Sequence record: NC_022968.1
DNA length: 64,000 nt
Reading direction: 5' to 3' (one strand)
DNA from: Escherichia phage 4MG
A program made the position numbers and the translations under genes. This document shows, one piece after another, positions 348 to 64,000 of this stretch (position 1 is its first letter; every line of letters starts with the position of its first letter). The notes below the pieces were generated by a model. The model was not told the DNA's origin. It did no database searches and saw nothing but the letters and a program-made list of their open reading frames with translations.

Positions 348-388
348 AGAGTCCTGCATCTAAACCCAAGGCAAGGAAGAAACCTGTC

Positions 389-877
389 GTGGTGCCATTG
401 ACGGCAGAACTTTGGGTTAAGGATGCAAGACAGATAGCAGCATTCAGGGAGAAGTTAATTCTGGAACAAGGCGGTCTTGATCCTGTACTTGGTGAGCCAC
501 TTCGCAAACCATGTCTCGATCATGATCACTTCGACGGAAAGTGTCGAGGAGTCCTTAGCCAGTGTGTGAATACGTTTGAAGGATATGTCCTGAAGGCTTG
601 GATGAAGTACGTTTCTGCTTACACAGAGACCTCGTTGTCCACAGCGCTTAGAAATCTTGCTGACTACTTGGAACAAGATTTCAGTGGGTATCCTATTCAT
701 GCTGGCTACAAGGACGACATGCTGAAGTTTTTGAGAAGATGTACCAATGAGAAGATCATTGAAAGGGCTGAGTCGGATCTCGGCCTCATCATTCCGAAAG
801 GAACTCAGAAGCATGACAGCATCACACTTTACCTTACGGAGTTTGTCAGACAGACGGAGGAAAGATTTGCTGAATAA
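389..877 (+). CDS. Endonuclease VII-like (T4 gp49 family) nuclease
   Basis: Motif LDHDHFDGKCRGVLSQCVN matches the Endo VII DHDH..G..RGLLC..CN signature; GTG start. Confidence 0.55.
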   Translation: MVPLTAELWVKDARQIAAFREKLILEQGGLDPVLGEPLRKPCLDHDHFDGKCRGVLSQCVNTFEGYVLKAWMKYVSAYTETSLSTALRNLADYLEQDFSGYPIHAGYKDDMLKFLRRCTNEKIIERAESDLGLIIPKGTQKHDSITLYLTEFVRQTEERFAE

Positions 878-878
878 T

Positions 879-1079
879 TTGAGTAAGCCCCTGAAGTTCT
901 ATTACAAGAACTGGCGCGGGGAATACGGTTACCGTACCGTGGTGGACCCGGTGATGTGGTATGGGTCTACAGAGTTTCACAAAAAGCCTCAATGGATGAT
1001 CAAGGCATATGATGTCGAGAAAGATGCCGTGCGAGACTTTGCTGTGAATGATATCGTTGAATTTATCCGAGAGGTGTAA
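879..1079 (+). CDS. hypothetical small protein (start uncertain)
   Basis: Track ORF 747-1079 trimmed to TTG just after the upstream stop; no clear RBS. Confidence 0.3.
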   Translation: MSKPLKFYYKNWRGEYGYRTVVDPVMWYGSTEFHKKPQWMIKAYDVEKDAVRDFAVNDIVEFIREV

Positions 1080-2053
1080 TGCTGAGTGCAGAAGAAATCC
1101 TTGATTTAAAAGCTAAAGGCCTGAGTAACCGTGAAATTGCTCGTCGTTATCTGGGAAAAGAAAGCAAGGAATCCCACATCCGTCTTATTCTTAAGGCGCA
1201 TGAGTATAACAAGGAAGCTGAGAGAGTGATCAGTGATGTTATTGAGCAGCATCCCGGTGCTAAGATCTTCCTCGGTGACGTAGAAGTATCACCAACACTG
1301 GCTTGGGTCTTTAACCGATTCAAGGCGTTTGTAACACCTTCCCACGTAGAGCATGAACCTTACATGTACACATGGGCTGGTAAGTGGTTACATAACCCTG
1401 CGATCATCAGTCGCAAACTTCCTGACTACGAAACGTTCAAAACAGATATCCACGACGACCGTGAACTGGTTGAAGAACTGTGGCATATTTTGGATGAGTG
1501 TGATATCTTCATCGCACACAACGCTCGCTTCGACAAAGGTTGGGCTAACCAGCGTTTCGCGTTCCACGGAATGAAACCGCCATCTCCGTACATCGTGATC
1601 GATACGCTTGCAGAACTCAAGTCAGCATTCTCCTTGCCTTCTAACGCTCTGGAAGCTGCGTGTAATTACTTCCAACTGGACGCTCGTAAGCGCCACCACG
1701 AAGGTATCACGCTGTGGATTCGTTGTTTCCACGGAGAGATTGAAGCATTCGAAGAAATGGAATACTACAACATCGGGGATATCCCGACACTTGAAGGTAT
1801 CTACTTGAAAGTCCGTCCTTTCATGAAGAAACACCCTAACGTGACCCTGTACAATGATGAAGACGAAAACACGGTCCTGCGCTGTGTCCGTTGTAACTCT
1901 GATCAGGTTGTTGAGATGCCGGGTAAGGTCGGTACTACGTACCTGTCTAAGTTCCAGGCATACCGTTGTGAGTGCTGCGGTTCTGTGATGCGTGACCGCC
2001 GTAACATCCGTACTAAGGAAGAAATGGCTAACACGCTTGTGAATATCATTTAA
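1079..2053 (+). CDS. DEDDh-type 3'-5' exonuclease (DnaQ-like)
   Basis: IFLGDVEVS (Exo I DxE) and IAHNARFDKGW (Exo III HxAxFD) motifs; ATG overlaps upstream stop. Confidence 0.55.
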   Translation: MLSAEEILDLKAKGLSNREIARRYLGKESKESHIRLILKAHEYNKEAERVISDVIEQHPGAKIFLGDVEVSPTLAWVFNRFKAFVTPSHVEHEPYMYTWAGKWLHNPAIISRKLPDYETFKTDIHDDRELVEELWHILDECDIFIAHNARFDKGWANQRFAFHGMKPPSPYIVIDTLAELKSAFSLPSNALEAACNYFQLDARKRHHEGITLWIRCFHGEIEAFEEMEYYNIGDIPTLEGIYLKVRPFMKKHPNVTLYNDEDENTVLRCVRCNSDQVVEMPGKVGTTYLSKFQAYRCECCGSVMRDRRNIRTKEEMANTLVNII

Positions 2054-2084
2054 GGGCTTCGGCCCTTTTGCAAAGGAGAGAAGA

Positions 2085-2690
2085 TTGGATATTATTGTTC
2101 TTAACGCCCCGCCACAAAGCGGTAAAGATGAGATCTCTGCGTATCTGTGCAAAGGTAATCCCAACATCAACCACGAAGAGGTAAAGGAACTCCTGTTTGA
2201 GGTTGCTATTCGTTCAGCGGGGATTTCCCGTGAGTTGTGGGATGCAATGTATACTCGTCGGTATAAAGAGATCCCAAGCCCATATCTGATGATTGATGGT
2301 GTGAATGTATCTCCACGTCAGTGGATGATCCATTGCTCTGAGAAGGTTATCAAGCCGTTGTTTGGTAAGTCTGCATTTGGTAAGGCCGCTGTAGAGCACC
2401 TGAAAAAGACCTATGCGAATGATGAAGTCATTGTGTATTCTGATGGTGGTTTCAGGGAAGAAATCAAAGAGTTATCCGATTACGCATATTCAACTGGTGG
2501 TGAATTCTTCCTTGCACGTATCCACCGAAAAGGTTATGATTGGGGTAATGACAGTCGTAACTGGTTGTACCTTGATGGTATCAGAGGCCACGAACGTGAC
2601 TTTGACAACAAAGAGGGCGGCATGATAGACTGTGCTGAAGAGGTTCTCGAATGGGCGAGAACTATTAGCTACGGAGAAGAGAATGCGTAA
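2085..2690 (+). CDS. P-loop deoxynucleoside monophosphate kinase-like
   Basis: Walker A-like LNAPPQSGKD resembling T4 gp1 dNMP kinase (LSGVKRSGKD); RBS AAAGGAGAG upstream. Confidence 0.5.
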   Translation: MDIIVLNAPPQSGKDEISAYLCKGNPNINHEEVKELLFEVAIRSAGISRELWDAMYTRRYKEIPSPYLMIDGVNVSPRQWMIHCSEKVIKPLFGKSAFGKAAVEHLKKTYANDEVIVYSDGGFREEIKELSDYAYSTGGEFFLARIHRKGYDWGNDSRNWLYLDGIRGHERDFDNKEGGMIDCAEEVLEWARTISYGEENA

Positions 2691-3285
2691 ACCGCTAAAT
2701 ATCGGTATTGATGTTGACCTGACTTTTGTCGATTCAGGGTCCCCTTGGATTCTATGGATGGAACAGGTGTATGGTGTGAGTGCTGACTACAAGCTTCCAC
2801 CACCAAACCCACAAGGGAAACTCTACTACAACGTTTCCAAGTATTTTCCACCTGCAAAGGTAAATCAGGTTCCACCATACGAGTTCTGGGAAGACCCATA
2901 CCTCTATGACAAACTGAAGCCTCTGCCTGGTGCAGTTGAAGCAGTAGCGGCTTGGGCCGAAGCTGGACACTTCAACCAGTTTGTGTCTTACTGTAAGAAA
3001 GGCCACTTCTCGTCTAAGGTGCGATTCCTGAAACGTGAAACGGAAGAGTTTTTCAGTATCGAGCCAGGCTCAGGCCACGGGTTCTATGCAACGAAAAACA
3101 AAGCTGGTATCAAACTCGATGTCATCATTGATGACCGCAACGAGTTCCTGAATCAGTTCGGTCCTGAAGTGATCAAGATTAAGTTCAAGACACCTTACGA
3201 TCAGTCCGAAGAACTTCGTGTCTCGATTGACCTTGAGACCGATAACTGGGACGACATCCGGAAGTTTGTTCTGGACATTGCATAA
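2683..3285 (+). CDS. HAD-superfamily phosphatase, probable 5'-(deoxy)nucleotidase
   Basis: N-terminal IGIDVDLTF = HAD motif I DxDxT; start trimmed to ATG with GGAG RBS, overlapping the kinase stop. Confidence 0.5.
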   Translation: MRKPLNIGIDVDLTFVDSGSPWILWMEQVYGVSADYKLPPPNPQGKLYYNVSKYFPPAKVNQVPPYEFWEDPYLYDKLKPLPGAVEAVAAWAEAGHFNQFVSYCKKGHFSSKVRFLKRETEEFFSIEPGSGHGFYATKNKAGIKLDVIIDDRNEFLNQFGPEVIKIKFKTPYDQSEELRVSIDLETDNWDDIRKFVLDIA

Positions 3286-3479
3286 TGAAGAGATGCCCCA
3301 CAGGAGACTTCGTTGTCCACTATGGGGATTGGGTGGAGGTTTTCACCGAGGACGGAACCTTCCTCATATCCTTCAAAGCAACAAGCGACATGTGTCAGGA
3401 CATCCTGACACGTTATCTGGTGTTTAAAGCAGGAATGAACCCTGAGACACCATATCGAATCAAAAGGAGAGGCAAATGA
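3285..3479 (+). CDS. hypothetical protein
   Basis: ORF with TAATG stop/start overlap. Confidence 0.45.
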   Translation: MKRCPTGDFVVHYGDWVEVFTEDGTFLISFKATSDMCQDILTRYLVFKAGMNPETPYRIKRRGK

Positions 3480-3799
3480 CATTAAAACAAGAATCTTTCG
3501 ACATCCTGAAAAATGAATTGCAACGCCGTGTGGATAAGGTTCCACAGGTTATGGGGTTTGATGCCTATGGTATCACCGCCGCAGATATGGGTCTCGATGC
3601 CGATTTCATTAACCGACTGATCACTGAAGCCTACCTTGGTATCTTCACTGCCGAAGAAGCTGAAGAAATGATCGCATTCCAGCAACGCTTTGCTGATCGC
3701 ACCGCGATCCTTGAAAAGGTTGTGGAAGAAGCTGTTGGAAAGGTAATGGAAGCCAACAAAGAAAACATCCTGAAAAAACTGCAAGAAGGGGTTAAGTAA
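3476..3799 (+). CDS. hypothetical protein
   Basis: ORF with ATGA overlap, RBS AAAGGAGAGG. Confidence 0.5.
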   Translation: MTLKQESFDILKNELQRRVDKVPQVMGFDAYGITAADMGLDADFINRLITEAYLGIFTAEEAEEMIAFQQRFADRTAILEKVVEEAVGKVMEANKENILKKLQEGVK

Positions 3800-4764
3800 T
3801 GACAGAAGCTGTAATCGCTCGCGTAGTAGCGGATAGTGTTTCTCCGCAGGGACAACGTATTACAACTTTTGAGCTTGAATACCCGCGTATCATCCACAGT
3901 GAGTTGATGACGCACCGACTATTCAGTCGTAATGCTATGAGTAGCCGTGCAATTCCGATCAAGAAGATGATCGAGCAGGTTCAGCAAAATCCAGCAATGC
4001 CTGTTAAGTTCGGGAAGAACCAGCCCGGTATGCAAGATGCAGGTGACCATAACCAGTTGATCGATGCGGGTTATGAACCCGCAACTTGGTGGGGACTAGC
4101 AGGGCTGAGTGCAGCACGATTTGCTGAGGCATTTGCAGAAGCTGGGTATCATAAGCAGATTGCAAACCGCCTTCTGGAGCCATTCCAGCGTATGAAGACG
4201 GTCCTGACTGCTACCGACTTCGAGAACTTCTGGTGGTTGCGTGTGGATAAGGATGCAGATCCTACCATCTTCGCACTGGCTGAAGCCATGAAGAAGGCCT
4301 TTGATGAGTCCTTACCAGAACTTCTGGAACCGGGACAGTGGCATACGCCGTATGTTGATCACGTCTACGAATACGAAGACATTGACGACAAAGAATGTGT
4401 TGTGTTTGTTGGGTATTGTGTTCTTGACGAGAACGACAAGCCTGTTATGCTTACCGTTGAGGAAGCAAAGGCAATATCTGCCTCGTGTTGTGCTCAGGTC
4501 TCTTACCGTGTCCTGAACAACACAAAAGATAAGGCGCTGGACATTTATGGGAAACTTTTGAGCGGTAATAAGGTTCATGCTTCTCCGTTCGAACACCAGG
4601 CTACGCCACTTGTTCATGCTTCCTGTGATGAACTGGAGAATGGGGCATTCGCTTGGGAAGAGGGCGTTACCCACGTTGACCGGAATGGGATGTTCTGGAG
4701 TGGTAATTTCCGTGGTTGGTCACAACACCGCCAGTTAGTTCCCAACAACGTAGTTTCAGGTTGA
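3799..4764 (+). CDS. putative flavin-dependent thymidylate synthase (ThyX-like)
   Basis: THRLFSRNAMSSR resembles the ThyX RHR-x7-S-x-R signature; sits in nucleotide-metabolism module; 321 aa is long for ThyX. Confidence 0.4.
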   Translation: MTEAVIARVVADSVSPQGQRITTFELEYPRIIHSELMTHRLFSRNAMSSRAIPIKKMIEQVQQNPAMPVKFGKNQPGMQDAGDHNQLIDAGYEPATWWGLAGLSAARFAEAFAEAGYHKQIANRLLEPFQRMKTVLTATDFENFWWLRVDKDADPTIFALAEAMKKAFDESLPELLEPGQWHTPYVDHVYEYEDIDDKECVVFVGYCVLDENDKPVMLTVEEAKAISASCCAQVSYRVLNNTKDKALDIYGKLLSGNKVHASPFEHQATPLVHASCDELENGAFAWEEGVTHVDRNGMFWSGNFRGWSQHRQLVPNNVVSG

Positions 4765-4845
4765 CAAAGGTTCCAGTAATCCGTATCTTGGTTGTATGAA
4801 TTGCGGGGAGAGTTTCTCCCCGATTATAGGCAGAATGGAGAATAC

Positions 4846-5322
4846 ATGAGTAAAACAAAACGCAAACCTACCCAACACATTTCGGTCACTTTGGACTTCC
4901 TGAGAACCGTTCCTGGATTCGATGTGACACAAGAAAGTGGACTCCGCGCTGCCCTTTATGCAGTAGGATTCCAAGTCTCCGACAGTGAGGGTAATCCTAA
5001 GCAAGTAACTATGCTTAACAACAAAAATGTACGATGTGCTAATTTGCCATATTTGTACCGTAAGACCACGATCTTTGTCGGTGACATGCGTCCGGACTAT
5101 CCGTATGCAAAAATTTATAACGGCGTTGACATCCTTGATGTCGGTGTGTATTCAGAGCGCGACATGGAGTTCGTTATCGACTTGCCTTATGACATCCCGG
5201 TAAACGAAAAAGTCAACACCCGTAAGTACACAAAACGCGGTGACCGCCCAGACTCGTTCGATATTACGTTCAATAGTGAAGATGAAGCACGTCTGAGTGA
5301 CGCATTTGGTCTGGGGGACTAA
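4846..5322 (+). CDS. hypothetical protein
   Basis: Track ORF 4792-5322 trimmed to ATG with GGAG RBS; preceded by hairpin CGGGGAGAG-TTT-CTCCCCG. Confidence 0.5.
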   Translation: MSKTKRKPTQHISVTLDFLRTVPGFDVTQESGLRAALYAVGFQVSDSEGNPKQVTMLNNKNVRCANLPYLYRKTTIFVGDMRPDYPYAKIYNGVDILDVGVYSERDMEFVIDLPYDIPVNEKVNTRKYTKRGDRPDSFDITFNSEDEARLSDAFGLGD

Positions 5323-5552
5323 TGAGTAAAGAGAAGACCAAGTGGAAAGACCGTGGCTTTGATGATAAGCATCACTACGCCGGGTGGCTCTACTTCAATG
5401 ATTTGACCGATGACAGTAAGATGTACGATGATGTTTACTATGATCAATATTCTGGTAAAATAATCAATGTCACTGCTCCGTCTGAAGAAACACCTCAAGA
5501 CGAGGAAGTTGACGAAGCCGATAAATATCTTGCTCAATTCGAAGAGAAATAA
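5322..5552 (+). CDS. hypothetical acidic protein
   Basis: ORF; start overlaps upstream stop. Confidence 0.5.
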   Translation: MSKEKTKWKDRGFDDKHHYAGWLYFNDLTDDSKMYDDVYYDQYSGKIINVTAPSEETPQDEEVDEADKYLAQFEEK

Positions 5553-5561
5553 GGAGAAAGT

Positions 5562-7877
5562 TTGATCAATACAGTTGTAAAGAGTGATGGAACAGAAGTT
5601 GTGTTCGAGCCGGAACGTCTTAACAAAGCAGCAATCTTTGGTGATGACGGCAATGGCAACTGGTCACATATCTCAATGGACGCTTACAAGCGTCTGTATG
5701 ACGGTTGCACCACTCGTGAAGTAAACCAGGCATTGATCGACGCTTGTGTAAGTCGTAAAGATGAAGCTCACTCCCGCATGGCTGGACGTGTTCTCATCGG
5801 GCAGATCTACAAAGAGGCGTATGGTGGTTTTACAAAGATCCCTACGCTGTTTAACTTCTACCACTACATGACCAATATCGGCTACTGGGAAGATATGGGT
5901 TATGACTCTTTCGACCTGATTAAGCTGGAAGAAGCTATTGATCACTCGAAAGACCTGAGTTATGGTTATGCGGTTCTGAAACAGTTCCGCGATAAGTACG
6001 GTATCAAGGACAACATCAACGATGTTCTGTTTGAATCTCCGCAGATGATGTTCATGGGTATCGCAATGGCAGTAATGAAACGTATGCCGAAGGAACGCCG
6101 TATCAATGACGTTATCCAACTGTACACGTACCTGTCTGATCTGAAGATCAATGCTCCAACGCCGTACCTGAATGGTCTGCGTACTGGTCGCACTGGCTAT
6201 GCGTCATGTTGCATCATCAAAGCAGACGACACAGCTAAGAGCATCGGTGTTGCTCGTGAAGTTGCGTACACAATGACGGTTGCACAGGCCGGGATTGGGT
6301 ATTACCTGTCCTCCCGTTCAATCGGTGATGGTGTCCGTGGCAATACGATCAAACACATGGGTAAAATCCCATATTACCGTGGGATTGACTCTGGTGTGAA
6401 AGAGAACCGTCAGTCAACTCGTGGTGGCTCTGCAACAGTTTCGTTCTTGGCTATCGACCCACAAGTCGAAGACCTGATGAAGCTGAAGAACCCGCTCACA
6501 GTGACCTCTAAACGCCTGAACACAATGGATTACTCCATCGGTATTAACCAGTCGTTCATGAACCGTGTGGCTAAGAACCTTGACTGGATGCTGGTCTCTT
6601 ACAAGGATGCACCTCAGTTACACGAGGGTATGTTTAAGATGACCATGCAGGAGTTCGATGCGGAAGTTGCTCGTATCGCAGCGGATAAGAAGATCCCTAA
6701 GACTTGGGTTAAAGCCCGTGACTTAGCTCTGGAGATCATCACACAACGAGCAGAAACAGGTCGCCTGTACGTGTACTGGCCTGATGAGATGAACCGACAC
6801 ACGCCGTTCCTGGAGACAATTTACTCCTCTAACCTGTGTCAGGAAATCTGTCTGCCGACCAAGGGCTACAAAGATATGCGTAATATCTTCAACCCTGTTG
6901 CAGACGATGGTGAGGTTGCGCTATGCTTCCTGTCCTCTTTGGTTGCTGGTCGTGTTACTCCTGAAGAGTACGAGGATGTTGCTTACTACACCGTCCTGAT
7001 GATCGATAACGTTATGGATATCATGGAATATCCGTATGAGAACATGAAGCACACAGCCGAATCTCGTCGTTCGATTGGTGTTGGCCTGACTAACCTTGCT
7101 CACTACATCGCGAAACACAAAGTCGCGTATGGTTCTCCGGAAAGCAAGCAGTTGGTTCACGATCTGGCAGAACTGCACAGCTACAGCCTGCACAAGGCAA
7201 GCTTGCGACTGGCGAAAGAGCGTGGTGTGGCACCGTGGATGCATAAGACCAAATACCCTCAGGGTTGGTTGCCTATCGACACCTATAACAAGGCAGTTGA
7301 TAGTGTTGTGAAGAATCCGAGTCTGAAGCAGGACTGGGAAACTCTGCGACAGGAAATCATCAAGAATGGTGGTATTCGTAACAGTGTTCTGGAAGCGTAT
7401 ATGCCGAACGAAAGTTCCTCATTGGCTACCAACACAACCAACGGTCTGTATCCGGTACGTGATCATGTGATCTTCAAGAAATCGCCTCAAGGCTCTGTGC
7501 TGTTTATTGTGCCTGAGTATGAAGAACTGAAGGATTACTACACCTCTGCGTGGGATATCAACACAAACGACCTGATTGACATTTACGCCATCATTCAGAA
7601 GTTCGCAGGCCAGGCAATCAGTGCTGACCTCTACATCGACTACACCCAGTTGAAAGACGGGAAGATTTCGATGAAAGACCAGATTGGTTATCTGATCCGT
7701 GCGACGAAGATGGGGATGAAGACCTGGTACTACCTGAACTCGAAGGTTGGTGCTGGCGACTCCCTCACCGCAGAACTTCAGGCGAAGAAAGAAGCAGAAG
7801 AGGCCACCCGCAAGGATTATCCTCTGATCGCTGACAACTCTGTCGAAGATCCGTACTGTGAAGGTTGTGCATTGTAA
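5562..7877 (+). CDS. nrdA: ribonucleotide reductase class Ia large subunit
   Basis: 771 aa; N-terminal ATP-cone-like segment, SSNLCQEI active-site motif, C-terminal YCEGCAL Cys pair; TTG start after AAGGAG. Confidence 0.9.
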   Translation: MINTVVKSDGTEVVFEPERLNKAAIFGDDGNGNWSHISMDAYKRLYDGCTTREVNQALIDACVSRKDEAHSRMAGRVLIGQIYKEAYGGFTKIPTLFNFYHYMTNIGYWEDMGYDSFDLIKLEEAIDHSKDLSYGYAVLKQFRDKYGIKDNINDVLFESPQMMFMGIAMAVMKRMPKERRINDVIQLYTYLSDLKINAPTPYLNGLRTGRTGYASCCIIKADDTAKSIGVAREVAYTMTVAQAGIGYYLSSRSIGDGVRGNTIKHMGKIPYYRGIDSGVKENRQSTRGGSATVSFLAIDPQVEDLMKLKNPLTVTSKRLNTMDYSIGINQSFMNRVAKNLDWMLVSYKDAPQLHEGMFKMTMQEFDAEVARIAADKKIPKTWVKARDLALEIITQRAETGRLYVYWPDEMNRHTPFLETIYSSNLCQEICLPTKGYKDMRNIFNPVADDGEVALCFLSSLVAGRVTPEEYEDVAYYTVLMIDNVMDIMEYPYENMKHTAESRRSIGVGLTNLAHYIAKHKVAYGSPESKQLVHDLAELHSYSLHKASLRLAKERGVAPWMHKTKYPQGWLPIDTYNKAVDSVVKNPSLKQDWETLRQEIIKNGGIRNSVLEAYMPNESSSLATNTTNGLYPVRDHVIFKKSPQGSVLFIVPEYEELKDYYTSAWDINTNDLIDIYAIIQKFAGQAISADLYIDYTQLKDGKISMKDQIGYLIRATKMGMKTWYYLNSKVGAGDSLTAELQAKKEAEEATRKDYPLIADNSVEDPYCEGCAL

Positions 7878-7914
7878 TTCTTATGGGGCTTCGGCCCCGT
7901 TTTAGAGGGGAATA

Positions 7915-9003
7915 ATGGCTGTATTTAACGTTGAGAACACCGCTCATAAAACTGGTGACTATCCGCTGTTCTTAGGGCAGCAAATGGGGATGTATGACTC
8001 CATCAACAAAAAGTACCCGCAACTGTTCGACCTGTACAAAAAGCAGAAAGAGCAGGACTGGTCTGAAGATGAAGTTGAACTGAACCAATCCATTACCGAT
8101 TTCGCGACCTGTAGCAAATCAACCTACGATGTCATGGTCCAGACGATCATGTGGCAGTGGGAAGCCGACAGCGTTGCAGCACAGGCGATTATTTGTCTGT
8201 TCGCACCATTCATCACCAATAGTGAACTGTTTGCTATGATGATGAAGCAATCTGAGATTGAAGTTCTTCATGCTTTAACGTATTCTGATATTGTCCGTCA
8301 GTGTCTGCCAAACTCACGACAGATCATTGAAGACATTCAGAATAACCAAGCTGTTCTCGAACGCTCTGGTGTAATCGTGAAGTATATGCGTGAACTGGAA
8401 GTTCTCGGTGCAAAATACCGTATCGATCCTGAGTCCGTGGACAAAGAAGAGATTCGCCGTGGTATTCTGCGAGCGCTGTTCTCTCTGCTTGGTCTTGAAG
8501 GTATCGAGTTCATCTCCAGCTTTGCATGTACCTTTGCACTGGCAGAACAGGGTGTGTTCGTTCAGGTCGGTCAGCTTGTCCAGAAAATCATGCTGGATGA
8601 AATGCTGCACACCAAGATGGACTTCGGTGTTATTGACATTCTCCTGAAAGACCCTGTGTGGAAAGATAGTTTCTACGCTATCAAGTCAGAACTGAAGGCG
8701 ATCCTCGATGAGGTACGTACAAACGAGTATGCATGGGGTGATTACCTGTTCAGTGAAGGCCGTGCGATCATCGGGCTTAACGCTCCATTACTGAAGGACT
8801 GGACAGACTGGAACTGCGCCCCGATCTACGATTACTACGGTATCGAACGTGACTTCGAAGCACCAAAACGCGATCCTCTTCCGTTCATGGACACTTGGAT
8901 GAACCCAAGCAAACAGCAGAATGCGAATCAGGAACAAACCAACACCGATTATCGTGTCAACGCGGCAATTGATGACACTGAAGGCGAAACCTGGGATTTC
9001 TAA
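7915..9003 (+). CDS. nrdB: ribonucleotide reductase class Ia small subunit
   Basis: 362 aa directly downstream of nrdA with RBS GGGGAATA; size and position as expected for NrdB. Confidence 0.8.
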   Translation: MAVFNVENTAHKTGDYPLFLGQQMGMYDSINKKYPQLFDLYKKQKEQDWSEDEVELNQSITDFATCSKSTYDVMVQTIMWQWEADSVAAQAIICLFAPFITNSELFAMMMKQSEIEVLHALTYSDIVRQCLPNSRQIIEDIQNNQAVLERSGVIVKYMRELEVLGAKYRIDPESVDKEEIRRGILRALFSLLGLEGIEFISSFACTFALAEQGVFVQVGQLVQKIMLDEMLHTKMDFGVIDILLKDPVWKDSFYAIKSELKAILDEVRTNEYAWGDYLFSEGRAIIGLNAPLLKDWTDWNCAPIYDYYGIERDFEAPKRDPLPFMDTWMNPSKQQNANQEQTNTDYRVNAAIDDTEGETWDF

Positions 9004-10309: not shown

Positions 10310-10864
10310 TTGAAACTAACGCTTGAACAACTCAACAAGATTTTTCCAGTAGGTGCATCCGCTGGGCGTAACGCAAAGTTCATTGATGCACTGAACGACT
10401 TGTTTGAGAAGGGTGGTATTAATACTGTCAACCGTATCGCCGGATTCCTCTCCCAAATTGGTGTGGAGTCTGCCGAGTTCCGTTACGTCAAGGAGCTTGG
10501 GAAGGATTCGTACTTTGATAAGTATGATACTGGCTCTATCGCAAAGCGTCTTGGTAACACCCCAGAGAAGGATGGGGATGGGGCCAAGTACAAGGGGAGA
10601 GGCCTGATTCAGGTAACCGGACTTGCAAACTACAAAGCTTGCGGTAAGGCACTTGGTCTGGACCTCGTTAACCACCCAGAATTGCTTGAACAGCCTAAGT
10701 ATGCAGTTGCCAGCGCTGGTTGGTATTGGAACATGAGAAACATCAACGCCGCTTGCGATGCTGATGATATCGTTAAGATTACCAAGCTGGTAAACGGTGG
10801 TACAAACCACCTGGCCGAGCGCACAGCCTATTACAAAAAGGCAAAATCTGTTCTAACCTCGTAA
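10310..10864 (+). CDS. glycoside hydrolase family 19 lysozyme-like endolysin
   Basis: KYKGRGLIQVTGLANYKACG matches the GH19 catalytic signature (GRGxIQ[LV]T..NY); TTG start after TAAGGAGG. Confidence 0.7.
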   Translation: MKLTLEQLNKIFPVGASAGRNAKFIDALNDLFEKGGINTVNRIAGFLSQIGVESAEFRYVKELGKDSYFDKYDTGSIAKRLGNTPEKDGDGAKYKGRGLIQVTGLANYKACGKALGLDLVNHPELLEQPKYAVASAGWYWNMRNINAACDADDIVKITKLVNGGTNHLAERTAYYKKAKSVLTS

Positions 10865-59732: not shown

Positions 59733-60223
59733 GCTTCAAATACAAAGTTGGTGACCTGATCGAAGCGGTCAAGAATGGTGAGGTTAATGTTTTTGCGCAT
59801 GGCTGCAACTGTTTTTGCACAATGGGTAGCGGTATCGCACCACTGATCAAAGAAGCGTTTCCGAAAATGTACGCTGCGGATCTGAAGACCGAGAAGGGTG
59901 ATAAGCATAAGCTTGGAACCTACACAATGGCCTTCCTGAAGGACGGCGAAGCTGCTGGTTTTAATCTGTATTCGCAATATGGCTATAATCGCCGTAAACA
60001 GGGCCTCAGGGACCTCGATTACAATGCCCTGTATGATTCGTTGGATTTGATGAAGAAGGCCTTACAGAGCTTTACAGACGGTTCTGTGGCTGACTACAAA
60101 ATCGGCTTCCCTAAAATCGGTGCTGGTCTTGCAGGCGGCGACTGGAACGTCATCGAAGCGATGATCAAGTCCGTGTTTTGGGATTGCGATGTCACAATCT
60201 ACATCCTTCCGGAGAAAAAGTGA
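59729..60223 (+). CDS. macro domain protein (ADP-ribose binding or hydrolysing)
   Basis: VFAHGCNCFCTMGSGIAPLI and IGFPKIGAGLAGGDW match the two glycine-rich macro-domain motifs; ATGA overlap. Confidence 0.55.
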   Translation: MSFKYKVGDLIEAVKNGEVNVFAHGCNCFCTMGSGIAPLIKEAFPKMYAADLKTEKGDKHKLGTYTMAFLKDGEAAGFNLYSQYGYNRRKQGLRDLDYNALYDSLDLMKKALQSFTDGSVADYKIGFPKIGAGLAGGDWNVIEAMIKSVFWDCDVTIYILPEKK

Positions 60224-60411
60224 TGTTCGTGATAATCTATTTGGCTATGTGGGTTCTGGCAACAACTGTATTCATCAGGCGCTGGCAGCGTCAGTTTGGA
60301 AGGGTTGATGCCTTTATCTTGGTATCGGCTATCTTTGCAGGGTTCTTTTGGTTCGCATACTTCCCGATTTTGGTAATCCTTCGCTTAATAAACGGAGACT
60401 GGAGATCATGA
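60223..60411 (+). CDS. small membrane protein
   Basis: Two hydrophobic segments; overlapping start. Confidence 0.4.
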   Translation: MFVIIYLAMWVLATTVFIRRWQRQFGRVDAFILVSAIFAGFFWFAYFPILVILRLINGDWRS

Positions 60412-60608
60412 TCGAATTAAAAGATGGTATGGTTGCACATACTAAAAAGATCGACCTTCATGTCGGTAATACGGTGTTCACCTATAACGCCCCTCGTGGT
60501 CAGAGCTTTGCTATCCTACTCCTTGGTGCAGAGAAGCCAAGTGGTGACGGCACTGGTATCCAGATCGATGAGTGGCTGAAGAATCGCGGTTGGAAACTGG
60601 AGGACTAA
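60408..60608 (+). CDS. hypothetical protein
   Basis: Trimmed start. Confidence 0.45.
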   Translation: MIELKDGMVAHTKKIDLHVGNTVFTYNAPRGQSFAILLLGAEKPSGDGTGIQIDEWLKNRGWKLED

Positions 60609-60850
60609 TGTATTATAAACATAAAAGCGCAGACCAGCAGAAAGAATTATTCGCTATTTTGGATACGGATAACAACTCTTTCTGGTTCTCAGGTATGAAT
60701 CGTGTAGCATATTCATCCTCTGGGATTGCAAAGACAGCGTTCTCTTCCAGCGCGAAAAATCCTCTCCGCTGCAAGTTCGGAGAACAGACTCGCTTTAAGA
60801 TTGTTCGCGTAGCGATTACACCAGAGGGGATTATTGCTCATGAGGTATAA
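60608..60850 (+). CDS. hypothetical protein (paralog pair, copy 1)
   Basis: Shares D-T-x-FW-x-G-x-AW/Y-x-S-xG-AK-xA...RxK...Q-TR-x-V-V pattern with next gene. Confidence 0.5.
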   Translation: MYYKHKSADQQKELFAILDTDNNSFWFSGMNRVAYSSSGIAKTAFSSSAKNPLRCKFGEQTRFKIVRVAITPEGIIAHEV

Positions 60851-61088
60851 AAAACGACTTGACACAGTTTTCTTAATCTTCGATACTGAGGACGGTATTT
60901 TGTGGAGTCATGGGCCAAAGGCTGCTTGGATAAGTACCGGGGCAGCAAAGAATGCCTGGAACTTATGCTCTAAGTCATACTATGACGACAAAGGCGACCG
61001 CATAAAACCGAAGTTTGACGATCAAACGCGTTATGTCATCGTTGAAATTCATGAAAATTTTGTTAGAAATCTTGTAGAGGAGAAATAA
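60840..61088 (+). CDS. hypothetical protein (paralog pair, copy 2)
   Basis: Tandem duplicate of previous gene. Confidence 0.5.
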   Translation: MRYKKRLDTVFLIFDTEDGILWSHGPKAAWISTGAAKNAWNLCSKSYYDDKGDRIKPKFDDQTRYVIVEIHENFVRNLVEEK

Positions 61089-61475
61089 ATGACTATGAGT
61101 AAATCTTTGGGCCAAACTACCCCTGCACAGCCTACAGAAATTGGGGGTAAGCGTTTCGCTGGTATCCTGCGTGATGTGGAACCGTTCTTCGGTTTCGGTA
61201 CGCATAAAGAGGTTCGTTGCATCTATGGTATCTTGGGCCGTGACCACAAAAACCGTGGCTTTGATGGTGGGCCGGTCCGTACTTCTGTTGTGCAGGATCT
61301 GATTGTCCATGAAGGTGATATTTATGCTATCACTATGAATAGCGCCTATCTGCTGGAAAGCGTACAGCTTCAGCATTTTATCGCCAGCGATATTTGGCGT
61401 GATGACATTGCCAAGCTCATTGCTCTCGCAATGATTGGTCAGGCAGCAAAGAATGAGGAGTCTAAAATTGACTAA
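61089..61475 (+). CDS. hypothetical protein
   Basis: ORF. Confidence 0.45.
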   Translation: MTMSKSLGQTTPAQPTEIGGKRFAGILRDVEPFFGFGTHKEVRCIYGILGRDHKNRGFDGGPVRTSVVQDLIVHEGDIYAITMNSAYLLESVQLQHFIASDIWRDDIAKLIALAMIGQAAKNEESKID

Positions 61476-62514
61476 ACCTATTAAGTACCCAAGCACCAAC
61501 CAGTTCCGTCAGGTTATTAAGGCGATTCATGATCGCCTGACCTTTGATGGTATTGATGAGAATGGAAACATCAAGCGCAAGGTTGTTGCGCCAGATCAGT
61601 ACCTGATCCCGTACATCGGTACAGTTAAGATCCACGGGACCAACGGCAGCATTGTCTTCCACTCTGAAGATGAGGTTGTTTTCCAGTCCAAAGAGCGTAT
61701 CGTTCAGGTTGGGGATGACAACAACGGCTTTGCTGCGTTCATGACCCGTAAAGATACCAAAGAGCTTCTGGAGCAGGTCAAGTACCTGTGTGAATGCAAT
61801 GACACACCATTCTCTTTCCCAGTTGAGATCGCTGGTGAGTGGGCTGGTCGCGGTATCCAGAAAGGCGTTGCTGTAAGCGAAGTTGAGCCGTTCTTCACGA
61901 TCTTCCGTGTTGCGGTTGGTCGCAATGAAGAGGGAAATTCCCTGAACTGGATGCCACCAAACTTCCAGTACGGCATTGGCCTGCCACAACAGCGGATCTT
62001 CAGTGTTCTTGACTTTGGTTTCTGGTCTGTGCAGATCCCATTCAACGAACCTGAACTGGTACAGAACGATCTGACCACACTGACGATGCAGGTTGAAGCC
62101 TCCTGCCCGGTTGGGAAACACTTCGGCGTTGAAGGTGTTGGTGAAGGCATTGTGTGGTCTCCTCTGCAACCTGAACTGGCTAAAGACTCCGGTCTGTGGT
62201 TCAAGGTGAAAGGCGAGAAGCACTCTGTGTCTAAGGTGAAAACTCTGGCTGAAGTTGACCCAGTACGTCTTCAGAACATGCGTGAGTTTGTTGACTACGC
62301 TGTGACTGAGAATCGCCTTGAGCAGGCTCTTGGTGAGGTTGGTCTCGACCAAACCAAGATCGGTGAGTTCATCGCATGGGTTAGTCGTGACATCAACAAG
62401 GAAGAAGGCGATGTTCTGGAAGCTAACTCCCTGACCATGAAGGATGTTGCGAAGTTCATCAGTAACAAATCTCGTGGCTGGTACATGCAGAAACTGAACG
62501 AGAGTCCACTGTAA
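61468..62514 (+). CDS. Rnl2-family RNA ligase
   Basis: VKIHGTNGSIV (motif I KxHGxN) and AGEWAGRGIQKG parallel T4 Rnl2 EKIHGTNFSL and FGEFAGPGIQKN as recalled; TTG start after GAGGAG. Confidence 0.6.
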   Translation: MTKPIKYPSTNQFRQVIKAIHDRLTFDGIDENGNIKRKVVAPDQYLIPYIGTVKIHGTNGSIVFHSEDEVVFQSKERIVQVGDDNNGFAAFMTRKDTKELLEQVKYLCECNDTPFSFPVEIAGEWAGRGIQKGVAVSEVEPFFTIFRVAVGRNEEGNSLNWMPPNFQYGIGLPQQRIFSVLDFGFWSVQIPFNEPELVQNDLTTLTMQVEASCPVGKHFGVEGVGEGIVWSPLQPELAKDSGLWFKVKGEKHSVSKVKTLAEVDPVRLQNMREFVDYAVTENRLEQALGEVGLDQTKIGEFIAWVSRDINKEEGDVLEANSLTMKDVAKFISNKSRGWYMQKLNESPL

Positions 62515-62699
62515 TGGCGCTGATCGTATGCACCTCACGGCCTGTTAAGGACAGGCCAGTGAAGTCTGAAGTTGATACTCTTATCTTCGAAGATGAAGAA
62601 ATGGGTAGACAATACGTAGAGGAACATGGTACGTTTGTCTTCTCAGTTCAAAAAGCGAGGATTATTCATGCAACAGACAGAGCCGAAGTTCGAAGTTAA
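62514..62699 (+). CDS. hypothetical protein
   Basis: ATGG overlap. Confidence 0.4.
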   Translation: MALIVCTSRPVKDRPVKSEVDTLIFEDEEMGRQYVEEHGTFVFSVQKARIIHATDRAEVRS

Positions 62700-62847
62700 T
62701 CATTTTGTTCGCGATAAGCACACGGGTAGAGTTATGAGAATCACCGATGTGCAATGGCAAGATGGTTGGTGTTATTCTTTTGATATGTTGGGTTGGCGTT
62801 TGTACCCAGAAGAGGATTTAGAGCCAATTGTTCCGATGCGTGGGTAA
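62668..62847 (+). CDS. hypothetical small protein
   Basis: Trimmed ORF. Confidence 0.35.
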   Translation: MQQTEPKFEVNHFVRDKHTGRVMRITDVQWQDGWCYSFDMLGWRLYPEEDLEPIVPMRG

Positions 62848-62875
62848 GCTTAAGGATTTATTAAGAGGAGAAAGT

Positions 62876-63238
62876 ATGGTAAAATCGAATGTTATTACTA
62901 TCAATGGACAGACCATTGTCAATGGTAGTATTAATTTCAATGGTGACCTGAACATCACCTCGAATGGAGATAACGTCTTCATCAATGGTGAACTTGTTCA
63001 CACCACACAGGAAAAGAACATCACTGTCGTTATTAACGGTGACACTAAGGGGATCAGCACAGTCTCTGGTGATGTCAACGTATACGGCACAGTGGCTGGT
63101 AACATCAAAACCACCTCTGGTGATGTTCACGTTGAAAACGGCGCACTTGGTGACGTTACCACAGTGTCCGGAGATGTACGTGCAAAAACAATAGAAGGCA
63201 ATGTAAAAACTGTCTCAGGCGATATCTCCCGCCGTTAA
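62876..63238 (+). CDS. repeat protein with beta-helix-like periodicity (bactofilin-like?)
   Basis: Repeated SGDV/NGxx units; RBS AAGAGGAGAAAGT. Confidence 0.5.
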   Translation: MVKSNVITINGQTIVNGSINFNGDLNITSNGDNVFINGELVHTTQEKNITVVINGDTKGISTVSGDVNVYGTVAGNIKTTSGDVHVENGALGDVTTVSGDVRAKTIEGNVKTVSGDISRR

Positions 63239-63243
63239 TTGAT

Positions 63244-63266
63244 AGCCCCTGCCCTGGGGCTTTTTA
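63244..63266 (+). terminator. rho-independent terminator
   Basis: GCCCCTGCCCTGGGGC followed by TTTTT. Confidence 0.7.
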
Positions 63267-63280
63267 ATTTGGAGCGTAAT

Positions 63281-63811
63281 TTGAAAGTAAAAAATCTGAT
63301 CCTGGCAACCGCCTGTGTGTTTTCTCTAGCCACCACGCCTGTACTGGCTAAAGACAACGCAAAGAAGCCCAAGGTGATTCATCTCTGCAAAAAAGATGAT
63401 TCAGCGGTAAATATCTTGGCATGTAATATGTATCGTGAAGCCCGTGGTGAGAGCGATTCTGGGATGATGTCTATCGCCTTTGTCACCCTTAACCGAAAGG
63501 ACAACGATAAGTTCCCTCACACCGTAAAGAAGATCGTGTACCAGTCCGGGCAATTCTCCTGGACATCTGGTAGTTCTTCCTTCAAAGTGTATGAAAAGGA
63601 GCGTTGGGAAAAGGCAAAAGAGTTTGCCTCGTTTCTAATCAAGGTGCATACCACGAACAAAATTGTGTATGATGCCCTTGACATCACTAAGGGTTCTACG
63701 TATTATCACTCAAAGAAGGTTAAACCATACTGGACGAAAGTTATGATTCGCACTGTAAGGATTGATAACCACATTTTCTATAAAGAGAAGCCTGAATCCC
63801 AGGGAGCCTGA
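63281..63811 (+). CDS. secreted SleB-like cell wall hydrolase
   Basis: N-terminal signal peptide (LILATACVFSLATTPVLA); NMYREARGES ... VTLNR ... YQSGQFSWT match Hydrolase_2/SleB motifs; TTG start after GGAG. Confidence 0.55.
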   Translation: MKVKNLILATACVFSLATTPVLAKDNAKKPKVIHLCKKDDSAVNILACNMYREARGESDSGMMSIAFVTLNRKDNDKFPHTVKKIVYQSGQFSWTSGSSSFKVYEKERWEKAKEFASFLIKVHTTNKIVYDALDITKGSTYYHSKKVKPYWTKVMIRTVRIDNHIFYKEKPESQGA

Positions 63812-63815
63812 ACGT

Positions 63816-63989
63816 ATGAAGAGTATTTTGCTACTTTGTGTTTGCATTATCCCGTATCTTGTGATACTGTCTCTTACTCAATGGATGTTCTGGGAGCAAG
63901 TGTCTGGGGCTTACGCTCTTGGCCTGCTGGCAGGTATCTATATCGTGCGGAAGGCTCGCAAAAGAAACCCCATAAATAACTGCAAATAG
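63816..63989 (+). CDS. small membrane protein
   Basis: Trimmed to ATG after AGGGAG; hydrophobic. Confidence 0.4.
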   Translation: MKSILLLCVCIIPYLVILSLTQWMFWEQVSGAYALGLLAGIYIVRKARKRNPINNCK

Positions 63990-64000
63990 AGGAGAAGCGG

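Follow-up and report, generated by a model that had tools for sequence, protein, structure and literature searches.

Three genes and an intrinsic terminator lie at the right-hand end of the 64,000-nucleotide (nt) stretch of the Escherichia phage 4MG genome (NC_022968.1) that was analysed here (hereafter, the window); all features described below are on the + strand. Gene A (62876..63238) encodes a 120-amino-acid protein of phrog_3163, which is predicted to be a cytoplasmic beta-solenoid protein and is an orthologue of PVP-SE1 gp242 and GAP31_004. The terminator (63244..63265) consists of an AGCCCC/GGGGCT stem, a 6-nt loop, and a T-run in the gap between gene A and gene B. Gene B (63281..63811) encodes the 176-amino-acid precursor of a SleB-type (Pfam Hydrolase_2) predicted peptidoglycan hydrolase, and gene C (63816..63989) encodes a 57-amino-acid protein that resembles class II holins and pinholins, having two membrane helices and a C-terminal tail with a charge of +6. 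A globular GH19 endolysin without a signal peptide is encoded at 10310..10864. An initial annotation of the window had placed the first two open reading frames where we find them, and described them as a beta-helix-like or bactofilin-like repeat protein followed by a secreted cell wall hydrolase distinct from the GH19 enzyme. Bases 61400-64000 match those of several Vequintavirinae phages (most closely vB_EcoM_LNA4, 91%; Cronobacter phage GAP31, 90%; Salmonella phage PVP-SE1, 81%), and by these matches the source phage is a member of this subfamily.

Gene B encodes a Hydrolase_2 protein with a predicted signal peptide

The gene B product matched the Pfam Hydrolase_2 profile (PF07486) with E = 6.4e-21 (75.3 bits, cut-off 27), and its residues 56-167 covered profile positions 1-100 of 100. 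It also matched phrog_938 ('endolysin') with E = 8.6e-30. The SleB-type domain that the initial annotation had read from motifs was thus borne out. Gene B shares this Pfam domain with Bacillus SleB and aligned with the SleB catalytic domains 4F55 and 4FET over the Y-x-E-x-R-G-E...N-R...F-P segment, the GESRGE stretch included. Glu53 (codon 63437..63439), which lies in the Y-R-E-A-R-G-E motif of gene B, aligned to the first Glu of GESRGE in both domains and is the predicted catalytic glutamate. The SleB enzyme resembles lytic transglycosylases and acts through a catalytic Glu, and from the SleB structure papers we take the Glu53 equivalent to be that residue. Glu53 was invariant in 31 gene B homologues, as were N71, R72, P79, Q91-F-S-W94, P149, W151, and Y167. 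On the basis of its domain and conserved residues, the gene B protein would be expected to cleave peptidoglycan.

The likeness to SleB does not extend to the whole protein. Unlike SleB, the gene B product lacks an N-terminal peptidoglycan-binding domain, is encoded by a phage, and is predicted to reside in the periplasm of a Gram-negative host. Against the NCBIfam spore_SleB equivalog model (TIGR02869), it scored 46.8 bits. Because this score is far under the cut-off of 236.5, we classify the gene B protein, at the level of sequence, as a member of the Hydrolase_2 family and not as a SleB orthologue.

The N-terminus of the gene B precursor is MKVKNLILATACVFSLATTPVLA/KDN, where the slash marks the predicted cut (signal peptide, residues 1-23; 63281..63349). 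It has an n-region with a charge of +2, an uncharged stretch of 18 residues (residues 6-23), Pro at -4, and V-L-A at -3 to -1. By a heuristic analysis of n-, h-, and c-regions in 34 homologues, the same architecture is present in most of them, consistent with the signal peptide proposed in the initial annotation. The closer homologues (≈20) have an n-region charge of 0 to +2, an uncharged stretch of 18-20 residues, and an A/V-x-A site. Comparable signal peptides occur elsewhere, in rV5-like nom (...LSLPVVA/AP), phi92 gp170 (...TPVVAQA/EA), and T5-like IrisVonRoten (...SFSSQA/SH). By this heuristic, the gene B protein would be exported by the Sec system and cleaved by signal peptidase I after V-L-A. 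Two other export routes were considered and rejected: there is no RR motif for Tat export, and the context of Cys12, which is not conserved, breaks the lipobox rules for a lipoprotein.

Two Cys residues in the mature part, Cys31 (63371-63373) and Cys48 (63422-63424), are conserved in close gene B homologues, and such a pair would fit an oxidising compartment. The hydrolases of Vequintavirinae phages and phi92 carry the pair as HxC...LAC, and distant homologues have Cys in N-C-L-A and T-I-C-x-V-V-x-Q. These differing positions may reflect a relocated disulfide, which would be consistent with a periplasmic enzyme.

A conserved terminator and a TTG start codon precede gene B

The initial annotation had also noted a terminator between the two genes. 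This element begins 5 nt past the gene A stop codon, where AGCCCC-TGCCCT-GGGGCT (63244-63261) is followed by five T residues (63261-65), and it has a fold energy of -18.7 kcal/mol (z = -2.3). The GCCCC/GGGGC stem and the T-run were invariant in 8 phages from four genera (Seunavirus, Mydovirus, Henunavirus, and Avunavirus), and the loop varied among them (TGCC, TACC, TTTC, GCAA, ATCG, and TTCA).

Gene B starts with TTG instead of ATG at 63281, behind a GGAG at 63271-63274. A TTG start was found in 7 of the 8 phages; the eighth, Av-05, has ATTTTG at the aligned position and an annotated start ≈10 bases upstream. The rV5-like homologue starts with GTG, and the phi92 homologue with TTG. The T-run is separated from the gene B start codon by ≈15 nt, which implies that gene B would be transcribed mainly by read-through of the terminator. 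Together, the conserved terminator and weak start codon suggest that selection has kept the dose of the exported, potentially self-lytic enzyme low.

A sigma-70-like sequence (TTGACA-17-TATTAT; 11 of 12 positions) is present at 63678-63706 within the 3' part of gene B, upstream of gene C and rIIA. We did not accept it as a promoter, since the L-D and Y-Y codons that it overlies are conserved and Proteus phage Mydo has lost it.

Gene C encodes a small holin-like membrane protein

Gene C, which was absent from the initial annotation, is the feature of the locus most relevant to mechanism. Its ATG (63816) is 4 nt past the end of gene B, and its product, MKSILLLCVCIIPYLVILSLTQWMFWEQVSGAYALGLLAGIYIVRKARKRNPINNCK, has hydropathy peaks at residues 1-21 and 29-44 followed by the tail with a charge of +6. 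The protein matched phrog_24442 (E = 9.4e-44), and it showed no Pfam match and no homology to any named holin family. We therefore regard gene C as holin-like by sequence, since its features are those of class II holins and pinholins but are permissive for this assignment instead of diagnostic.

Gene C was found in 58 records, all from Seunavirus or Mydovirus phages and often unannotated, and it lies directly 3' of the hydrolase gene in the records of both genera whose coordinates were compared. Hena1 and CB7 encode non-homologous small membrane proteins in the position of gene C. CB7 keeps its membrane gene in the absence of rIIA/B, which implies an association of this small gene with the hydrolase and not with rII.

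Two observations concern the reading frame of this gene. PVP-SE1 gp244 (8342-8516 of fragment L001) is annotated in a non-conserved frame, and the conserved two-helix frame is intact at 8355-8516; the annotated start is shifted because of a 1-nt difference in T-run length compared to the window. In addition, a second open reading frame of 47 amino acids (63836-63979) overlies gene C in an alternative frame. This frame is that of the PVP-SE1 gp244 annotation and of a 222-amino-acid read-through homologue of the hydrolase, and it is probably a chance open reading frame or an annotation artefact.

Gene B homologues recur in many phages that encode other endolysins

The GH19 enzyme, which is encoded 53 kilobases upstream of gene B, matched Pfam Glyco_hydro_19 with E = 5.7e-10, and its homologues are annotated as endolysins adjoining holins in many phages. 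The two hydrolases are therefore separate, as the initial annotation had stated. That annotation had called a second, exported hydrolase unusual, which did not hold up: tblastn searches detected gene B homologues in 1156 phage records, mainly from phages of Escherichia, Salmonella, Pseudomonas, and Klebsiella, and Vequintavirinae, phi92-like, and T5-like phages combine Hydrolase_2 genes of the exported type with other endolysins.

The Vequintavirinae case has been published. CB7_83 of Pectobacterium phage CB7 (Certrevirus) was described as a SleB-like protein with a signal peptide that is conserved in all Vequintavirinae genera, and as toxic upon expression in E. coli, although the data were not shown there (Buttimer et al., 2020; PMC7344957). 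The same study proposed that CB7_82, a 65-amino-acid protein with two helices whose gene overlaps that of CB7_83, is a class II holin, and it listed three peptidoglycan-degrading enzymes per genome (PMC7344957). The SleB-like hydrolases of Vequintavirinae phages (PVP-SE1 gp243, rV5 SleB, CB7_83, and CR3_087) are orthologues of gene B with no substantive difference. Gene B is 85% identical to PVP-SE1 gp243, and orthologues of the gp243 type share with it the place upstream of rIIA, the signal peptide, and a small two-helix gene downstream. We conclude that the exported second hydrolase is real and is neither unusual nor new, and that the locus was already described in sister phages. The present analysis adds that the terminator and the TTG start are conserved, and that exported homologues extend to phi92-like and T5-like phages.

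The closest experimentally studied analogue of gene B in behaviour is Tgl of Kayvirus, a large virulent myovirus of Staphylococcus, which is exported by the host and acts after membrane permeabilisation. An early-type promoter drives transcription of its gene, and Tgl itself, a second lytic enzyme that was termed 'an additional endolysin' next to LysK, carries a signal peptide. Removal of this peptide abolishes the toxicity of Tgl in E. coli, and addition of a holin mimic brings about lysis (PMC7150955). Tgl differs from gene B in its IsaA/SceD-type transglycosylase motifs and Gram-positive host, and the two proteins have no sequence relationship. BSPM4 ORF52 was considered as a relevant experimental case and set aside, since it belongs to an unrelated Chi-like phage.

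Gene A belongs to a beta-solenoid family that is distributed independently of gene B

The gene A protein has a high content of Val, Gly, Asn, and Thr. Four T(V/T)SGD(V/I) units, detected with the pattern [ST][VTI]SG[DN][VI], are located at residues 62, 79, 96, and 112 (spacing 17, 17, and 16); none of 100,000 shuffled sequences contained four such motifs. An AlphaFold2 model of the protein, with 71 homologues in the alignment, had 14 short strands (predicted local distance difference test score, 80; predicted template modelling score [pTM], 0.67) and predicts a right-handed beta-helix with the triangular core of bactofilins. The repeats of SGDV-type units and the beta-helix suggested in the initial annotation thus agree with the motif spacing of ≈17 residues and with this model. 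A Foldseek search of the PDB with the model gave no significant match, and fold matches in BFVD were to unnamed family members and to one protein labelled 'Bactofilin'.

Translation is likely to begin at one of two sites. The ATG at 62876 has AGAGGAGAAAGT just upstream, and a Shine-Dalgarno sequence with a start codon at the equivalent position was found in the window, LNA4, GAP31, PVP-SE1, KB57, and Mydo. The resulting 120-amino-acid form starts with MVKSNVITING, ends with SGDISRR, and is without terminal tails. An alternative TTG start at 62828 would give 136 amino acids with the N-terminus MFRCVGKLKDLLRG (MFRCVGKLK). An MGLRE[WY] extension upstream of gene A is conserved in GAP31, PVP-SE1, KB57, and Mydo. 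Since the annotations of relatives include an N-terminal MGLREW... extension, the longer form remains a candidate and could be produced from the TTG.

The 'bactofilin-like polymer' of the initial annotation was not supported. The gene A protein scored 18.3 bits against the Pfam Bactofilin model (PF04519), below the cut-off of 27.9, and this model was touched by only 3 of the 71 homologues (E < 0.01). A profile of the gene A family detected no bactofilin chain, or any related chain, in the PDB at E ≤ 10. Unlike bactofilins such as BacA and the Thermus thermophilus protein 6RIA, the 120-amino-acid gene A product has neither disordered tails nor a membrane-targeting peptide. Moreover, an AlphaFold2 model of a gene A tandem fusion (two copies, 30-residue linker, matched alignment), which is a weak test of polymerisation, reached a pTM of 0.46, with no confident self-interface and with lower confidence at the C-terminal turns. 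Assignment to Toastrack/DUF4097 (PF13349) was likewise rejected; 3 of the 71 homologues touched this model at E < 0.01 (best E = 2.1e-5), and the window protein itself had no match to the hidden Markov model. The FapA solenoid (PF03961) was reached, weakly, by 1 of 10 long family members, none of the members compared matched the MinC C-terminal domain, and no other Pfam domain was found as a fusion partner in the long members. The structural likeness of gene A to Toastrack/DUF4097, the FapA solenoid, and the MinC C-terminal domain is generic to the fold. The gene A family, with 9,787 cluster representatives at E ≤ 1e-3, mostly of 110-160 amino acids, is by these sequence tests an uncurated, mostly phage-borne beta-solenoid family (phrog_3163) that is neither bactofilin nor Toastrack.

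Several features of the family suggest that membrane tethering is common across it. Many members carry a short amphipathic peptide at one end, at the N-terminus of some (MNIFKSL..., MFKKFLKGFF..., MKIFKKNN...) and at the C-terminus of others (...SWFKELLFSIFG, ...SSIFEKIFG, ...VSNFIGNFFG), and further members have N-terminal membrane helices followed by basic stretches. The terminal 'F..(I/L)FG' peptides partly resemble the membrane-targeting sequences of FtsA, MinD, and bactofilins, for the last of which the consensus MFSKKKK has been reported (PMC12448750). The terminal peptides that recall the bactofilin sequence belong to other family members, and the 120-amino-acid copy in the window is without one, although initiation at the TTG at 62828 could supply it. 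In a helical-moment test, the N-terminal tails of the family did not differ significantly from shuffled tails (0.476 compared to 0.452). In one 513-amino-acid member (P0220), a signal peptide and numerous repeats are combined with a C-terminal membrane domain of several helices.

Homologues of gene A were present in 140 phage records (Vibrio, 38; Klebsiella, 28; and others, including Acinetobacter and jumbo phages). Genes A and B adjoin in Seunavirus, Mydovirus, Henunavirus, and Avunavirus. No hydrolase gene adjoins the gene A homologue in the four other phages inspected (Acinetobacter phage Bestia, Vibrio phage 1.263.A, jumbo phage GAP32, and Vibrio phage QD01). In QD01, the homologue lies between RNA ligase 2/methyltransferase genes and rIIA/rIIB, and there is no Hydrolase_2 gene there. 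Conversely, rV5-like phages keep the hydrolase and have an unrelated 126-amino-acid protein encoded upstream of it. Gene A homologues in bacterial assemblies and metagenomes were in prophage-like or phage surroundings, and no wall enzyme was encoded close to them. In two metagenomic phage contigs (positions 3919-5348 and 1690-3119, respectively), the gene A homologue is directly 3' of a 359-amino-acid gene of the adenylosuccinate synthetase family, which may encode a PurZ-like enzyme of modified-adenine phages.

Gene order around the locus

A conserved block of genes is opened by an RNA ligase 2 (RnlB-like) gene at 61435-62514 (Pfam RNA_ligase, E = 1.9e-8; phrog_548, E = 4.5e-78) and closed by rIIA. 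The counterparts in PVP-SE1 are gp239 (RNA ligase 2), gp240, gp241, gp242 (hypothetical), gp243 ('cell wall hydrolase SleB'/'endolysin'), and gp244. In GAP31, rIIA is the next gene of the block, and an AGGAG after gene C, at the edge of the window, is presumably the ribosome-binding site of rIIA. The order RNA ligase 2...methyltransferase...gene A homologue...rIIA-rIIB is shared by Vequintavirinae phages and the Vibrio Straboviridae phage QD01 (QD01 piece 386-8197 compared to window 61435-64000); in this comparison, Vequintavirinae differ solely by having the hydrolase and the small membrane gene. PADLOC defence models had no match, an Rfam scan of 60000-64000 gave none, and the two matches to the Certrevirus type of early promoter in the 64 kilobases were not near the locus.

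Discussion

We favour, at about even confidence, the interpretation that genes A and B are functionally independent and that gene B encodes an auxiliary lysis enzyme, made at a low dose and exported by Sec, that acts together with the GH19 endolysin. In this model, the gene B transcript would arise by read-through of the conserved terminator and be translated from the TTG codon, so that the dose is kept low. The enzyme would be exported by Sec, cut by signal peptidase I, and build up in the periplasm without a large-hole holin, where it would cut peptidoglycan as an auxiliary to the cytoplasmic GH19 endolysin. Depolarisation of the inner membrane by the gene C product would probably trigger or potentiate the enzyme in this lineage. 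Gene A would be a separate cytoplasmic accessory protein of the RNA ligase-to-rIIA block, and our best guess for its role is a membrane-proximal binding scaffold.

Several points weigh against the assignment of gene B as an auxiliary lysis enzyme. Bacillus SleB needs muramic-delta-lactam, which E. coli-type peptidoglycan does not contain, and activity of the gene B protein on normal peptidoglycan is therefore assumed. No promoter was identified for gene B, which lies within early-type genes (RNA ligase, phosphatase, MoxR ATPase, and rIIA), an odd timing for a pure lysis enzyme. The exported hydrolase is retained in Av-05, rV5-like (nom), and T5-like phages from which gene C is absent, which implies that a dedicated holin partner is not general. 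Finally, our literature search found no experiment on a phage Hydrolase_2 protein from a Gram-negative host.

A different reading of the same genes, which we consider unlikely, is that genes B and C form a canonical signal-arrest-release (SAR) endolysin/pinholin pair and are the main lysis system in place of the GH19 enzyme. An uncleaved anchor would then keep the gene B enzyme inactive on the membrane until depolarisation by the pinholin. Gene B and gene C do resemble the systems of phage 21 (R21/S21) and P1 (Lyz) in combining an exported muralytic enzyme with a small two-helix protein that has a cationic C-terminus. The Ala/Thr/Ser-rich h-region of gene B, which also counts against a cleaved signal peptide, would fit an uncleaved SAR-type anchor. 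The two helices of gene C with a GLLAG motif in helix 2 and the +6 tail, and the 4-nt spacing between the genes, which suggests translational coupling, fit this pairing as well, as does the class II holin proposed for CB7_82 (PMC7344957). However, SAR domains are uncleaved, whereas most gene B homologues have Pro at -4 and A/V-x-A followed by a charged residue, as for a signal peptidase I site. The catalytic family also differs, and the order of hydrolase then membrane protein is unlike that of SAR/pinholin systems. Moreover, many lineages keep the enzyme without an adjacent small membrane gene, and a standard GH19 endolysin is also encoded. The PVP-SE1 endolysin gp146 has reportedly been characterised biochemically, which we likewise count against a SAR system as the main route to lysis.

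It is doubtful, to a similar degree, that gene B acts early in the periplasm as a wall-remodelling factor instead of a lysis protein. Possible roles of this kind are a loosening of peptidoglycan that allows enlargement of the infected cell, superinfection exclusion in which injection by later phages is blocked, and altered muropeptide signalling. Such a function would account for the place of gene B among early-type genes directly upstream of rIIA/rIIB, for its being built for low expression, and for the conservation of the hydrolase in phages with a full endolysin, T5-like phages included. The early-type promoter of the Kayvirus analogue points in the same direction (PMC7150955). On the other hand, the toxicity of CB7_83 fits a lytic role as well, and the literature searched contained no evidence for exclusion or remodelling. 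The superinfection control mentioned in the initial annotation accordingly found no evidence either way in that literature.

By far the least probable proposal is that gene A forms a bactofilin-like cytoplasmic polymer that positions or regulates the gene B hydrolase: the genes do adjoin in four genera, the wall synthase PbpC is recruited by the bactofilin BacA, and some gene A family members have membrane anchors or terminal peptides like membrane-targeting sequences, but the gene A product lacks bactofilin membership and showed no confident self-association in the tandem model, and its coupling to the hydrolase is unlikely because the distributions are independent (140 compared to 1156 records, and Vibrio phages with gene A that lack the hydrolase), a conserved terminator lies between the two genes, and the two proteins would be in different compartments, the hydrolase exposing a cytoplasmic n-region of only four residues before cleavage.

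For this window, the main outcome is that genes known from sister phages are now correctly annotated. More broadly, most of the large virulent phages that infect enterobacteria and Pseudomonas encode a SleB-type hydrolase with a signal peptide in addition to a conventional endolysin. If the gene B enzyme pre-loads the periplasm, it would represent a holin-independent branch of lysis control and a candidate enzybiotic that reaches peptidoglycan unaided. For the cloning of gene B, the apparent limitation of its dose by the terminator and the TTG codon offers useful guidance on design. Two wider proposals, which taken jointly we regard as rather improbable, follow from the two families. Proteins of the gene A family could be a new class of bactofilin- or Toastrack-like inner-membrane scaffolds in the rIIA/rIIB early block, acting for example in envelope stress or lysis timing, or the dose-limited exported Hydrolase_2 proteins of large virulent phages could be early, holin-independent wall-remodelling or exclusion factors and not endolysins. 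The residual interest of the locus lies in the functions of exported Hydrolase_2 enzymes and in the large phrog_3163 beta-solenoid family.

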